From the NCBI RefSeq assembly GCF_024502345.1, contig NZ_JALDNN010000001.1: a stretch of 64,000 bases of DNA; one strand, given 5' to 3'. This DNA is from Escherichia coli (GTDB taxonomy: Bacteria; Pseudomonadota; Gammaproteobacteria; Enterobacterales; Enterobacteriaceae). Position 1 is the first letter of the stretch; the number at the start of each line of letters is the position of its first letter. A model generated the notes under the pieces. It searched no databases, was not told the DNA's origin, and saw nothing but the letters and a program-made list of their open reading frames with translations. The position numbers were made by a program, and so were the translations under genes. Of the stretch, positions 1 through 38,816 are shown in pieces.

Positions 1-3000
1 ACAAGGAGCGGAATTTACATTATCACCAGAAAATGAAACTGGAATGACTCTGTTTGCCAATAACACCGTTTCAGGAGAATATAATAACGGCGGGGCAATA
101 TTTGCTAAAGAAAACTCAACGCTGAATCTTACGGATGTTATTTTTTCTGGTAACGTCGCAGGCGGCTATGGTGGCGCAATCTATTCTTCTGGTACTAACG
201 ATACCGGTGCCATCGATTTACGTGTCACTAACGCCGTGTTTCGCAATAACATCGCTAATGACGGCAAAGGTGGTGCAATTTATACCATCAATAATGATAT
301 CTATTTAAGTGATGATGTTTTTAACAATAACCAGGCATATACATCAACAAGTTACAGTGATGGCGATGGCGGCGCAATCGATGTCACAGATAATAATAGC
401 GACAGCAAGCATCCTTCAGGTTATACGATAATAAATAACACTGCCTTTACAAATAACACTGCCGAAGGTTATGGCGGGGCGATATATACCAATAGCGCGA
501 CGGCTCCCTATCTTATTGATATTTCTGTTGATGACAGCTACAGCCAGAACGGAGGCGTGTTAGTCGATGAGAACAATAGCGCAGCAGGCTATGGAGATGG
601 TCCTTCCTCTGCGGCGGGTGGCTTTATGTATCTCGGCTTAAGTGAAGTTACCTTTGATATTGCCGACGGAAAAACGCTGGTTATCGGCAATACAGAGAAT
701 GACGGAGCTGTTGACTCTATTGCTGGTACCGGGTTGATCACCAAAACAGGTTCCGGCGATCTGGTACTTAATGCAGATAACAATGACTTTACTGGTGAGA
801 TGCAGATTGAAAACGGTGAAGTTATTCTGGGCCGCAGCAACTCCCTGATGAATGTCGGAGATACTCATTGCCAGGACGATCCGCAAGACTGCTACGGTCT
901 GACGATAGGGAGTATTGATAAGTACCAGAATCAGGCAGAGCTAAACGTTGGCTCGACCCAACAAACTTTTGTGCACGCATTGACGGGCTTTCAGAATGGC
1001 ACTTTAAATATCGATGCTGGTGGCAACGTTACTGTTAATCAGGGCAGTTTTGCTGGCATCATCGAAGGTGCTGGTCAGCTCACCATTGCGCAAAACGGCA
1101 GCTACGTGCTGGCAGGGGCGCAGTCGATGGCGCTAACCGGCGATATAGTCGTTGATGATGGTGCGGTGCTTTTGCTGGAAGCCGACGCGGCAGATCTTAC
1201 CGCTCTCCAGGACGATCCGCAGTCGATCGTGTTAAACGGCGGTGTGCTCGATCTCTCTGATTTCTCCACCTGGCAGAGCGGCACATCATACAATGATGGC
1301 CTTGAAGTCAGTGGCAGCAGCGGAACGGTTATCGGCAGTCAGGATGTGGTAGATCTTGCAGGCGGAAACGATATGCATATCGGCGGCGACGGGAAAGATG
1401 GCGTCTACGTGGTGATCGATGCGGGTGACGGGCAGGTCAGCCTGGCAAATGACAATCAATACCTCGGCACAACGCAAATCGCTTCCGGTACGCTGATGGT
1501 GAGCGACAACTCGCAGCTTGGAGATACCCATTATAACCGCCAGGTTATCTTTACCGATAAGCCACAAGAAAGCGTGATGGAGATTACTGCCAATGTCGAT
1601 ACTCGCTCTACAACGACTGAGCATGGGCGTGATATTGAAATGCGCGCCGACGGTGAAGTGGCAGTTGATGCGGGGGTAGACACGCAGTGGGGCGCACTGA
1701 TGGCTGACAGCAGCGGGCAGCATCATGATGAGGGTAGCACATTGACGAAAACGGGGGCGGGTACGCTGGAGCTGACCGCCAGCGGTACAACGCAGTCGGC
1801 GGTACGTGTCGAAGAAGGCACCCTGAAAGGTGATGTTGCTGATATCCTTCCTTATGCTTCATCACTGTGGGTTGGTGACGGGGCAACGTTCGAGACTGGC
1901 GCGGATCAGGATATTCAGTCTATCGATGCTACTTCCAGCGGCACTATCGACATCAGCGATGGTACGGTTTTGCGCCTGACCGGGCAGGATACTTCCGTCG
2001 CCCTTGATGCCTCACTGTTTAACGGCGATGGGACGCTGGTAAATGCTACCGATGGCGTGACGTTGACAGGCGAGCTTAATACCAACCTTGAAACTGACAG
2101 CCTGACCTATCTTGCTGACGTGACGGTTAATGGTGATCTGACCAATACGTCCGGTGCGGTTAGCCTGCAAAATGGCGTCGCTGGCGATACGCTGACGGTA
2201 AACGGTGATTATACCGGCGGCGGTACGCTACTGTTCGACAGCGAATTAAACGGCGATGACTCGGTAAGCGATCAATTGGTGATGAACGGTAATACTGCTG
2301 GCAACACAACTGTGGTGGTTAACTCCATTACAGGGATTGGTGAGCCGACATCGACAGGCATTAAAGTGGTTGATTTCGCAGCTGATCCCACGCAGTTTCA
2401 AAACAATGCACAGTTCAGTCTGGCTGGCAGTGGCTACGTCAACATGGGAGCGTATGACTACACGCTAGTGGAAGATAACAACGACTGGTATCTGCGATCG
2501 CAAGAAGTAACGCCGCCATCGCCACCTGAGCCAGACCCGACTCCCGATCCTGATCCCACGCCGGATCCTGACCCAACCCCCGACCCGGCCCCTACGCCTG
2601 CTTACCAGCCGGTGCTGAATGCCAAAGTTGGCGGTTATCTCAATAACCTGCGGGCGGCAAATCAGGCGTTTATGATGGAGCGACGCGATCACGCTGGTAG
2701 CGATGGTCAGACGCTGAATTTACGTGTTATCGGCGGACGTTATCATTACACGGCGGCAGGGCAACTGGCTCAGCAGGAAGACACTTCTACGGTGCAGCTT
2801 AGCGGTGACCTGTTTAGCGGGCGCTGGGGCGATGATGGCGAGTGGATGCTTGGGATTGTAGGTGGCTACAGCGATAACCAGGGCGACAGCCGCTCGAGTA
2901 TGACCGGAACTCGCGCCGATAACCAGAACCACGGTTATGCCGTTGGGCTGACCTCAAGCTGGTATCAGCACGGTAATCAGAAGCAGGGGGCCTGGCTGGA

Positions 3001-7186: not shown

Positions 7187-7293
7187 GAATTGAAAAGTCC
7201 AGGCTGCAAAGTCTGGGCTTTTGTCGTATTAGGGCGCGGTAAAGTTTGGCTGTGTCCGTAAAAAATGGCTGGCTATACACAAGGAATGTGGCA

Positions 7294-14140
<6,847 letters not shown>

Positions 14141-23545: not shown

Positions 23546-23638
23546 AAAAAAAACCGGATGCGAGGCATCCGGTTGAAATAGGGGTAAACAGACATTCAGA
23601 AATGAATGACGGTAATAAATAAAGTTAATGATGATAGC
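23546..23638 (-). ncRNA. micF: MicF antisense sRNA
   Basis: Reverse complement reads GCTATCATCATTAACTTTATTTATTACCGTCATTCATTTCTGAATGTCTGTTTACCCCTATTTCAACCGG...GCCTCGCATCCGG followed by a T-run; divergent from ompC. Confidence 0.85.
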
Positions 23639-23972
23639 GGGAGATATTCTAGTTGCGAGTGAAGGTTTTGTTTTGACATTCAGTGCTGTCAAATACTTAA
23701 GAATAAGTTATTGATTTTAACCTTGAATTATTATTGCTTGATGTTAGGTGCTTATTTCGCCATTCCGTAATAATCTTAAAAAGTTCCCTTGCATTTACAT
23801 TTTGAAACATCTATAGCGATAAATGAAACATCTTAAAAGTTTTAGTATCATATTCGTGTTGGATTATTCTGCATTTTTGGGGAGAATGGACCTGCCGACT
23901 GATTAATGAGGGTTAATCAGTATGCAGTGGCATAAAAAAGCAAATAAAGGCATATAACAGAGGGTTAATAAC
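23639..23972. promoter_or_regulatory. micF-ompC divergent control region (expected OmpR-binding region)
   Basis: AT-rich intergenic region between the divergent micF and ompC; individual sites not resolved by eye. Confidence 0.45.
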
Positions 23973-25085
23973 ATGAAAGTTAAAGTACTGTCCCTCCTGG
24001 TCCCAGCTCTGCTGGTAGCAGGCGCAGCAAATGCTGCTGAAGTTTACAACAAAGACGGCAACAAATTAGATCTGTACGGTAAAGTAGACGGCCTGCACTA
24101 TTTCTCCGACAACGATAAGGTTGATGGCGACAAGACCTACATGCGTCTTGGCTTCAAAGGTGAAACTCAGGTTACTGACCAGCTGACCGGTTACGGCCAG
24201 TGGGAATATCAGATCCAGGGTAACGCTCCGGAAAGCGAAAACAACTCCTGGACCCGTGTGGCATTTGCTGGTCTGAAATTCCAGGACGTTGGTTCTTTCG
24301 ACTACGGTCGTAACTACGGCGTTGTTTACGACGTAACCTCCTGGACCGACGTGCTGCCAGAATTCGGTGGCGACACCTACGGTTCTGACAACTTCATGCA
24401 GCAGCGTGGTAACGGCTTCGCGACCTACCGTAACACCGACTTCTTCGGTCTGGTTGACGGCCTGAACTTTGCTGTTCAGTATCAGGGCAAAAACGGTAGC
24501 GTAAGCGGCGAAGGCATGACCAACAACGGTCGTGATGCTCTTGAGCAGAACGGTGACGGTGTTGGTGGTTCTATCACTTATGACATCGGTGAAGGCTTCA
24601 GCTTCGGTGGTGCGATCTCCAGCTCCAAACGCACCGCAGAGCAGAACAACAGTGCTCGTTTCATCGGTAATGGTGATCGTGCAGAAACCTACACTGGTGG
24701 TCTGAAATACGACGCTAACAACATCTACCTGGCTGCTCAGTACACCCAGACTTATAACGCAACTCTGGCTGGTGATTTAGGCTGGGCGAACAAAGCCCAG
24801 AACTTTGAAGTGGTTGCCCAGTATCAGTTCGACTTCGGTCTGCGTCCTTCTGTTGCTTACCTGCAGTCCAAAGGTAAAAATCTGAATGCCAACATCGCTG
24901 GTCGTACTTACGACGACGAAGATCTGGTGAAATATGTTGATGTTGGTGCTACCTACTACTTCAACAAAAACATGTCCACCTATGTTGATTACAAAATCAA
25001 CCTGCTGGACGACAATAACTTCACCCGCGCTGCTGGCATCAACACTGATGACATCGTAGCTCTGGGTCTGGTTTACCAGTTCTAA
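23973..25085 (+). CDS. ompC: outer membrane porin C
   Basis: [46 protein letters not shown]...; C-terminal LGLVYQF; 370 aa. Confidence 0.97.
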
Positions 25086-25103: not shown

Positions 25104-25126
25104 AAAGGGCCTGCGGGCCCTTTTTT
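25104..25126 (+). terminator. intrinsic terminator of ompC
   Basis: gggcc-tgcg-ggccc hairpin followed by tttttt. Confidence 0.65.
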
Positions 25127-25196
25127 CATTGTTTTCAGCGTACAAACACAGTTTTTTGGTGTACTCTTGCGACCGTTCGCATGAGGATAATCACGT

Positions 25197-26252
25197 ATGG
25201 AAATAAGCTTTACCCGCGTGGCACTGCTGGCTGCCGCGCTCTTCTTTGTTGGTTGCGATCAAAAACCACAACCCGCCAAAACCCACGCTACTGAAGTTAC
25301 CGTTCTTGAAGGCAAAACCATGGGTACCTTCTGGCGTGCCAGCATCCCGGGCATTGATGCCAAACGCAGTGCCGAACTTAAAGAAAAGATTCAGACCCAG
25401 CTGGACGCCGACGATCAGCTGCTTTCGACCTATAAAAAAGATTCCGCGCTGATGCGCTTTAACGACTCGCAAAGTTTGTCGCCGTGGCCGGTAAGTGAAG
25501 CGATGGCCGATATCGTCACCACCTCGCTGCGCATTGGCGCAAGGACCGATGGTGCGATGGATATAACCGTCGGGCCGCTGGTGAATCTGTGGGGCTTTGG
25601 CCCGGAACAACAGCCGGTTCAAATTCCGAGCCAGGAACAGATCGATGCGATGAAAGCCAAAACTGGTTTACAGCACCTTACGGTCATTAATCAGTCGCAT
25701 CAGCAATATCTGCAAAAAGACCTGCCGGATTTATATGTCGATCTCTCTACCGTCGGCGAAGGTTATGCGGCGGATCACCTGGCACGCTTGATGGAGCAGG
25801 AAGGGATTTCCCGCTATCTGGTGTCGGTGGGGGGCGCGCTGAACAGCCGTGGTATGAACGGTGAAGGCCAGCCGTGGCGGGTAGCGATTCAAAAGCCAAC
25901 CGATAAAGAAAATGCGGTTCAGGCCGTGGTGGATATCAACGGTCATGGTATTAGCACCTCTGGCAGCTACCGTAACTATTACGAACTGGACGGCAAACGT
26001 CTTTCCCATGTTATCGATCCGCAAACCGGGCGTCCCATCGAACACAATCTGGTATCCGTGACGGTGATTGCTCCGACGGCGCTGGAAGCCGATGCCTGGG
26101 ATACTGGCTTGATGGTACTCGGGCCGGAGAAAGCCAAAGAGGTTGTTCGCCGGGAAGGGCTGGCGGTTTATATGATCACCAAAGAAGGCGATAGCTTTAA
26201 AACCTGGATGTCACCACAGTTTAAAAGCTTCCTTGTCAGCGAAAAAAATTAA
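25197..26252 (+). CDS. apbE: FAD:protein FMN transferase (ApbE family lipoprotein)
   Basis: 351-aa ORF with lipoprotein signal (LLAAALFFVGC); position between ompC and ada. Confidence 0.88.
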   Translation: MEISFTRVALLAAALFFVGCDQKPQPAKTHATEVTVLEGKTMGTFWRASIPGIDAKRSAELKEKIQTQLDADDQLLSTYKKDSALMRFNDSQSLSPWPVSEAMADIVTTSLRIGARTDGAMDITVGPLVNLWGFGPEQQPVQIPSQEQIDAMKAKTGLQHLTVINQSHQQYLQKDLPDLYVDLSTVGEGYAADHLARLMEQEGISRYLVSVGGALNSRGMNGEGQPWRVAIQKPTDKENAVQAVVDINGHGISTSGSYRNYYELDGKRLSHVIDPQTGRPIEHNLVSVTVIAPTALEADAWDTGLMVLGPEKAKEVVRREGLAVYMITKEGDSFKTWMSPQFKSFLVSEKN

Positions 26253-37789: not shown

Positions 37790-38229
37790 AAAGCCATGAC
37801 CTGAAGAAAGCGCTGTGTCAATGGACGGCGATGCTGGCCCTGGTGGTAAGCGGCGCGGTTTGGGCGGCTAATGGCGTCGATTTTAGCCAGTCGCCGGAAG
37901 TATCCGGGACGCAGGAAGGGGCCATTCGGATGCCAAAAGAGCAGGATCGGATGCCGCTGAACTATGTGAATCAGCCGCCAATGATCCCGCATAGCGTTGA
38001 AGGTTATCAGGTAACGACCAATACCAACCGCTGCTTGCAGTGCCACGGTGTCGAAAGCTATCGCACCACTGGCGCGCCGCGTATCAGTCCTACTCACTTT
38101 ATGGACAGCGACGGCAAAGTGGGCGCGGAAGTGGCTCCGCGTCGTTATTTCTGTCTGCAATGTCACGTACCGCAGGCCGATACCGCGCCAATCGTGGGGA
38201 ATACCTTTACCCCATCAAATACCGAATGA
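37786..38229 (+). CDS. napB: periplasmic nitrate reductase dihaem cytochrome c subunit; final codons appear replaced at the prophage junction
   Basis: [27 protein letters not shown]... with two CxxCH motifs (CLQCH x2); ends ...NTFTPSNTE whereas the remembered reference ends ...TPSKGYGK. Confidence 0.88.
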   Translation: MKSHDLKKALCQWTAMLALVVSGAVWAANGVDFSQSPEVSGTQEGAIRMPKEQDRMPLNYVNQPPMIPHSVEGYQVTTNTNRCLQCHGVESYRTTGAPRISPTHFMDSDGKVGAEVAPRRYFCLQCHVPQADTAPIVGNTFTPSNTE

Positions 38230-38671
38230 AGTGGACTATCGAAAATTGCAGGAACTGTTCACGCGGATCGCCATCGATAAACATATTCAGCAAAAGCTTG
38301 AACATCCTCACCACCAGCTGGTGGCTACCTACCAGTCATTAAACCGCAAGTATTCAGAATTGCTGGAGGAATACAAAATCCTTCGGCGCTGCTTCTCTGT
38401 TTCCGCTCTTGTTCCTTATACCGACGTATGGACACATAAGCCTGTTCAGTTTTATCCAGGCAAACATCCATGCGAAAAACCTGCCGACATGCTGAAACAG
38501 ATCATTAGCGCCAGCAGCAGACCGGGGGATATCGTTGCCGATTTCTTTATGGGCTCTGGTTCAACTGTGAAAGCTGCAATAGAACTTGGCCGTCGGGCGA
38601 TCGGCGTAGAACTGGAGGCAGACAGGTTTATACAGACCACCGAAGAGGTGGAAAAACTGAAAAAATCATAA
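38219..38671 (+). pseudogene. 5'-truncated phage DNA N6-adenine/N4-cytosine methyltransferase (C-terminal fragment only)
   Basis: HPCEKP and DIVADFFMGSGSTVKAAIELGRRAIGVELE (FxGxG SAM-binding motif I) present; no DPPY catalytic motif and no in-frame start after the napB junction. Confidence 0.6.
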
Positions 38672-38816
38672 CGATCACCACGCTCCCCCGTTGCTGTGGT
38701 GATCACCATCTTCAGGCACCGGGAATCATCCTTAATTTTTACTTGAACATAAGAGCCCGGTTGCCTGATCCCCTTCAATCACACACAGCGCCATCCGAAC
38801 TATCGGAGGTGAGGCT

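Follow-up and report, generated by a model that had tools for sequence, protein, structure and literature searches.

A 370-codon ompC allele of Escherichia coli with the features of a loop-cassette recombinant

The window, a 64,000-nt stretch of the E. coli contig NZ_JALDNN010000001.1, carries an ORF of 1113 nt (370 codons and a TAA stop, with no internal stops in the ORF list and the translation) that is an intact E. coli ompC orthologue at its canonical locus (Table 1). OmpC is a trimeric, cation-selective diffusion channel, the expression of which depends on OmpR/EnvZ. The product of the ORF scored 755.2 bits against the NCBIfam model NF007841 'porin OmpC' (cut-off 484), whereas its scores against the OmpF and PhoE models (473 and 461 bits, respectively) were below the cut-off of each of these models; the score against the Pfam family PF00267 (Porin_1) was 473 bits. 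No result spoke against the identification as ompC. The neighbouring genes are arranged in the order rcsD–micF–ompC–apbE–ada–alkB, as in the annotations of K-12 and of the complete genome C 236-04A, with rcsD upstream of ompC and on the opposite strand. The start codon and the Shine-Dalgarno region are identical in K-12 and in the window, and so are the last 10 residues of the protein, which end in YQF (pairwise alignment). Removal of the signal peptide leaves a mature protein of 349 aa. The C-terminal aromatic residue (YQF) serves as the outer-membrane assembly signal of OmpC, which also has a Sec signal peptide. The region between micF and ompC is expected to hold the ompC promoter and 5' UTR, as is established for the ompC/micF locus. 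A lone A/G change with respect to C 236-04A was seen at position 23651, proximal to the micF promoter and 12 nt upstream of the Rfam-mapped 5' end of micF.

Table 1. Features of the ompC locus in the window (residues in precursor numbering)
Feature	Residues	Position in window	Strand	Basis and remarks
micF antisense sRNA gene, divergent from ompC		23546..23639	−	Full-length match to Rfam RF00033, 116.8 bits against a gathering score of 79
micF–ompC intergenic region		23640..23972	+	E. coli-type; last ~300 nt 99-100% identical to K-12 (sliding identity, alignment to C 236-04A)
ompC ORF	1-370	23973..25085	+	ORF list, translation
Signal peptide	1-21	23973..24035	+	Identical to K-12 (pairwise alignment); mature OmpC chains in the PDB begin at query residue 22
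Loop L1	46-55			DSSP on AF2 model
Loop L2	83-91			DSSP on AF2 model
Constriction loop L3	116-144	24318..24404	+	Identical to K-12; no change between residues 89 and 175
Extracellular loop L4	172-195	24486..24557	+	4 codons fewer than K-12, 'GFTS' missing after codon 180; alignment, AF2 topology
Strand beta8	196-206			DSSP on AF2 model
Insertion at I205-G206	205-206	24585..24590	+	+1 codon, 'DIGEGF' vs K-12 'DY-EGF'; periplasmic end of beta8, adjoining turn T4
Turn T4	207-208			DSSP on AF2 model
Strand beta9	209-219			DSSP on AF2 model
Extracellular loop L5	220-235	24630..24677	+	+1 codon vs K-12, 'NNSARF' vs 'NTAA-Y' around residue 229
Loop L6	262-273			DSSP on AF2 model
Extracellular loop L7	303-315	24879..24917	+	+5 codons vs K-12, 'NANIA' (residues 305-309, nt 24885-24899)
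Loop L8	344-360			DSSP on AF2 model
3' mosaic block, E. fergusonii-like		24513..25067	+	ompC nt ~541-1095; site counts, sliding identity tables
Intrinsic terminator-like hairpin AAAGGGCCTGCGGGCCCTTT and T run		25104..25130 (hairpin 25104-25123)	+	Consensus scan; 19 nt past the ompC stop
apbE ORF		25197-26252		ORF list

The initial annotation had given 370 codons for the window gene and 367 aa for K-12 OmpC. Both lengths were confirmed: the ompC gene of K-12 MG1655 (b2215, 2311646..2312749) spans 1104 nt and has 367 codons, so the reference itself is not 370 aa long. The difference of three codons had been placed most likely in the surface loops. Alignment to K-12 OmpC and mapping onto the loops revealed not one indel but four in-frame events (−4, +1, +1 and +5) that add up to a net gain of three codons. 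The placement in surface loops held for 10 of the 11 indel residues, which fall in L4, L5 and L7, but not for the remaining one, which is in the beta8-beta9 hairpin, at its periplasmic end. This insertion, at I205-G206, is the sole indel of the four that is not exposed at the surface; it lies between L4 and L5 and is hence periplasmic by topology. The 'GFTS' segment that is missing from the window allele contains the only Phe of the K-12 L4.

Substitutions followed a similar pattern. Aside from the indels, the two proteins differ by 29 substitutions, 22 of which are in loops L1, L2 and L4-L8, and they are 92% identical over the aligned residues. Counting all alignment columns, 32 of the 40 that differ from K-12 are in extracellular loops (Fisher p = 2e-9): eight in L4, six each in L5 and L7, three each in L1, L2, L6 and L8, and none in L3. 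The other eight are in strands, and four of these flank turn T4. The locus, the signal peptide, the 16-stranded barrel, L3 and the C-terminal YQF are common to the window protein and K-12 OmpC (PDB 2J1N). At the DNA level, the window gene is 87-88% identical to that of K-12, whereas the flanks are 98-99% identical.

Since residue-level boundaries of the OmpC loops could be taken from the literature only in part, we assigned them by DSSP on an AF2 model of the window protein; they are thus predicted boundaries, not those of a crystal structure of this allele. The model was built with an alignment of 71 sequences, which included diverse porins from a representative search, and reached a pLDDT of 91.5 and a pTM of 0.86. 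It replaced a run with a shallow alignment of 11 E. coli alleles that was unusable (pLDDT 26). In Foldseek comparisons with the solved OmpC structures 2XE1, 2J1N and 2XE5 the target-normalised TM-scores were 0.95-0.97 and the rmsd values 1.4-1.8 Å (0.96 and 1.8 Å for K-12 OmpC, 2J1N). In this predicted model, DSSP found 16 main strands, the first of which is split in two, and an extra short hairpin within L7; the barrel fits the porin pattern of long loops on the extracellular side, short turns on the periplasmic side and an L3 that folds inwards. The placement of the three large variable segments in L4, L5 and L7 agrees with that of Beck et al. 2016 (PMC5056734).

With the window gene as a megablast query, ompC was found in 5,425 of 5,426 complete E. 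coli genomes. We sampled 59 full-length matches at even steps down the ranking and recorded the span of the gene: 1092 nt in three genomes, 1095 in seven, 1104 in 25, 1106 in one (a probable frameshift), 1107 in four, 1113 in one, 1122 in six, 1125 in three, 1128 in six and 1131 in three. The sampled genes thus range from 363 to 376 codons, and the mode of 367 accounts for less than half of the sample. A product of 370 aa is in the middle of this range, and its length is thus no signal. The class of the window allele, defined by at least 99% nucleotide identity, comprises 29 of the 5,426 complete genomes; all have a gene of 1113 nt that is at least 99.5% identical to the window ompC, with 2-6 silent or near-silent differences. 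Among them are O125ac:H10, O169:H41 ETEC and O78 as well as a number of isolates from poultry. Outside this class, the most similar allele is only 92.8% identical to the window gene.

Over the 24 kb upstream of ompC, the identity between the window and C 236-04A, the closest genome, is 100.0%; the ompC of C 236-04A is 99.8% identical in nucleotide sequence, with only two synonymous changes (G83, GGT/GGC, and Y170, TAT/TAC). Because these differences are only synonymous, the window OmpC is the same protein as WP_000865563.1, the RefSeq accession of the ompC product of both C 236-04A and O169:H41 F6326-C1. The exact sequence is present on at least 1000 contigs and bears the UniRef name B0LTA0_ECOLX. 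WP_000865563.1 (strain KTE196) also serves as the exemplar of the L5 variant a9 in the S2 Table of Beck et al. 2016 (PMC5056734), and in the nomenclature of that table the window protein has L4 variant c4 (KNGSVSGEG…), L5 variant a9 (RTAEQN…) and L7 variant l. The window ompC is an ordinary allele, catalogued years ago, of a gene known to be hypervariable. That the length difference is an artefact, caused by a sequencing or assembly error or by a mis-called start codon, is barely conceivable: every indel is a multiple of three, the start codon and the signal peptide are those of K-12, the same gene recurs in the 29 independent complete genomes, and the identical protein is annotated by RefSeq. 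We found no point in support of such an artefact.

A further difference between the window and C 236-04A was noticed in yfaA (7246-8982), which is an uninterrupted ORF of 578 aa from a TTG start in the window, whereas the annotation of C 236-04A, otherwise 100.0% identical, lists it as a pseudogene with a frameshift. The 24,000-nt query aligned to 23,999 nt of that genome, that is, there is a single 1-nt indel somewhere in the stretch, and the discrepancy in yfaA may stem from a miscounted homopolymer in the sequence of either record.

To describe the ancestry of the allele, we compared the window locus with those of ten E. coli strains and K-12. In 10 of these 11 comparisons the flanks (rcsD, the intergenic region, apbE and ada/alkB) were 96-99.8% identical, the exception being E. 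coli MB53, whereas ompC itself was only 87-93% identical to the other allele classes. A divergent ompC between flanks of high identity is the pattern known for a hypervariable locus that undergoes recombination. In protein clusters at 90% identity, the representative of the cluster that contains the window OmpC is a 371-aa OmpC of Escherichia fergusonii, 95% identical to it. Compared with the locus of one E. fergusonii assembly (L013), the window was 56-88% identical in the flanks and about 92-93% identical over the whole of ompC, and in sliding windows over ompC nt ~690-1140 the identity was 94-98%.

The positions at which K-12 and E. fergusonii L013 differ were used as informative sites, and the window gene was scored for which of the two it matched. 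K-12 was matched at 19 sites and E. fergusonii at two in ompC nt 1-240; the corresponding numbers were 2 and 7 in nt 241-300 (L2), 11 and 7 in nt 301-540, 10 and 60 in nt 541-1095, and 12 and 2 in nt 1096-1200. From these counts, the window ompC is a mosaic, in which the first ~40% of the gene, like the DNA on either side of it, is of the E. coli type and nt ~541-1095 belong to an allele lineage shared with E. fergusonii and other Escherichia species. This 3' block holds the indels of turn T4, L5 and L7 as well as the substitutions in L6 and L8; the L4 deletion is outside it.

The OmpC proteins of the type found in E. fergusonii, DEC1A and MB53 (371 aa; WP_000865540.1 and WP_040063065.1 types) share with the window protein 95% amino acid identity, L7, the 'TLAGD' of L6 and the 'NNFTRAAG' of L8, and in nt 541-1095 the DNA is about 95% identical. 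Unlike them, the window protein has the short c4 L4 (without 'TGV'), an L5 that is two residues longer and a 5' part of the E. coli type. The apbE gene of the window is also of the E. coli type, whereas in MB53 the fergusonii-like tract extends through apbE. It has been described that ompC of E. coli evolves as a mosaic, through local recombination of the segments that encode the loops (bioRxiv 10.1101/2021.09.21.461324; Beck et al. 2016, PMC5056734), and the porin genes in these reports exhibit loop-focused variation, many combinations of loops and incongruence between the gene tree and the strains. The window ompC is the same in kind and adds one further example, with an explicit map of the breakpoints.

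The label 'E. fergusonii-like' is derived from the single assembly L013. To see whether E. fergusonii is the species-typical source of the L7 insert, we scanned 100,044 species-representative genomes with a degenerate DNA pattern for the L7 coding motif; the scan returned two matches, E. whittamii Sa2BVA5 (L016) and a divergent Escherichia labelled E. coli (L015, with a 371-aa OmpC). Neither match was in a record titled E. fergusonii; the label hence names an allele lineage and not a proven donor, and the donor lineage is uncertain. The direction and the timing of the recombination events are likewise estimates drawn from a handful of genomes.

The extra codons could also have arisen in place, by small slippage or duplication indels under diversifying selection, without the import of loop cassettes. 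The L5 variant a9 (NNSARFIG) could indeed be derived from a8 (NNYG-IG) by a 2-codon indel and substitutions, so that recombination was probably accompanied by some local mutation. As an account of the whole allele, we nevertheless regard origin in place as unlikely. The L7 insert is located within a block of ~550 nt in which the change of ancestry extends to silent sites and to sites that code for strands (60 vs 10 informative sites), the same L7 is present in E. fergusonii as well as in the two genomes matched by the scan, and the same protein occurs on E. coli backgrounds with flanks that are 1.4% apart.

The ompC gene of E. whittamii Sa2BVA5 was 99.64% identical to that of the window over all 1113 nt, and its 370-aa product differs by one substitution, E223D. 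More than ~170 nt upstream of ompC, the E. whittamii DNA was only 50-98% identical to the window (82% over 641 aligned nt), whereas the first 178 nt of apbE were 98% identical. In the E. whittamii locus (L016 1-2055) a 5' breakpoint was seen ~150 nt upstream of the ompC start codon, and E. coli-like sequence runs on into apbE. On balance we favour the view that the c4/a9/l receptor allele recently crossed species boundaries within Escherichia and that its 3' half is derived from the E. fergusonii-like lineage. Since apbE sequence of the E. coli type is part of the shared tract, E. coli would more likely be the source of the transfer and E. whittamii the recipient. If true, this would be a concrete, datable inter-species exchange of a receptor for phages and contact-dependent inhibition (CDI), possibly driven by shared phage pressure. 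At the same locus, E. coli MB53 (L003 3001-5300) has a tract of ~2.3 kb or longer that begins at the start of ompC and extends through apbE. Its identity to E. fergusonii L013 is 94-100%, whereas in apbE it is only 69-87% identical to K-12; this tract looks like a clear inter-species import.

We consider the best overall explanation, with a probability of about 90%, to be that the window carries an intact ompC that is a loop-cassette recombinant, in which a change of surface recognition is to be expected. On this reading, the gene is a functional-looking chromosomal osmoporin allele between micF/rcsD and apbE that encodes a general porin with a 16-stranded beta-barrel. Its three additional codons reflect another combination of variable loops, with the further residue at turn T4, and the loop cassettes belong to the standing variation in Escherichia that is reshuffled by homologous recombination. 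Because the barrel, the signal peptide and L3 are conserved, the protein would be expected to form a trimeric osmoporin with pore properties like those of K-12 OmpC. Regulation of ompC is probably unchanged with respect to K-12, because the ~300 nt upstream are nearly the same in both (Table 1).

The initial annotation had described the surface loops as being under phage and immune selection, which is plausible: the diversity of the OmpC loops has been attributed to phage, immune and CDI pressure (PMC5056734; bioRxiv 10.1101/2021.09.21.461324). L4 and L5 determine the recognition of OmpC by CdiA-EC536 (PMC5056734). Loops L1, L4 and L5 matter for phage T4, and L4 matters for Tu1b, SS4 and Hy2 (bioRxiv 10.1101/2021.09.21.461324); the Phe in L4 of K-12 OmpC has been reported as needed for the adsorption of phage T4 (PMC5221442). 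In O157, an antibody epitope that is specific to the strain is built from L6 and L7 of OmpC (PMC8426304). Judging from this literature, the altered surface of the window protein (L1, L2 and L4-L8) would be predicted to change how OmpC-dependent phages, toxins of the CdiA-EC536 type and antibodies recognise it. Since the allele is without the Phe-bearing segment of L4 and its long L7 is uncommon, predictions of host range should not carry over to the window strain the susceptibility to phages or CDI that is deduced from K-12. Beyond bookkeeping, the allele matters little, as loop polymorphism, its recombinational origin and its link to phages, CDI and antibodies have already been published; the 3' block of E. 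fergusonii-like sequence and the occurrence of the allele in E. whittamii illustrate, on a small scale, a mosaic evolution that is already known.

A prophage near ompC had been put forward as relevant to the allele. The late region of a prophage is really present, beginning 13 kb downstream of ompC, but its relevance to the allele was not supported. Synteny with C 236-04A stops at 38219, 16 nt short of the end of napB, and phage DNA begins at 38220. It encodes the C-terminal ~150 residues of a DNA methyltransferase, a holin and an endolysin, followed by an AT-rich region with csp-like small genes and then, on to the end of the window, by the large terminase subunit, the portal, the major capsid protein, the tail sheath, the tape measure and the baseplate. 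In comparison with a phage collection, this region gave short, patchy matches only. C 236-04A has an uninterrupted napB-napC-ccm region and no prophage at that site.

The allele might be tied functionally to this prophage, for example as a receptor variant for escape or for use. OmpC is a documented phage receptor, as had been pointed out, both for phages such as T4, for which the loops named above matter, and in PDB 9wcb, in which the central tail fibre (gpJ) of a phage is bound to OmpC. A tie of this kind is nonetheless very improbable. C 236-04A, the closest relative, has an identical OmpC and 100.0% identical upstream DNA without such a prophage, and the protein is spread over many lineages, with a copy that differs by a single substitution in another species. 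Moreover, receptor choice acts in trans, and chromosomal proximity has no mechanistic bearing on the use of a receptor. No tail-fibre gene of the prophage was found within the window; such genes are located beyond the end of the window, so the receptor of the prophage cannot be deduced from it. Nor did we find a second, prophage-borne porin (lc/nmpC-like) in the window, where tblastn returned ompC alone.

The junction at 38219/38220 was inspected separately (38200-38700). The 3' end of napB is fused there to the middle of a phage DNA-methyltransferase gene, of which only the C-terminal ~150 residues match, compared with a gene of 350 aa in E. coli 027_SK3. At the junction the napB ORF has 154 aa rather than 149 aa and is not followed by napC-ccm. 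The junction has no att site, no integrase gene and no obvious microhomology. Its structure suggests that a deletion or rearrangement cost the prophage its early half and interrupted the nap operon; truncated at its left end, the prophage is probably defective. The segment 40100-44000, which separates the lysis cassette from the packaging genes, is AT-rich (35-45% GC), and none of its ORFs exceeds 99 aa. This segment is covered to 80% or more by no complete E. coli genome and is therefore rare in RefSeq, and parts of it resemble small genes of the cspI/ynfN/ymcF type (80% identity).
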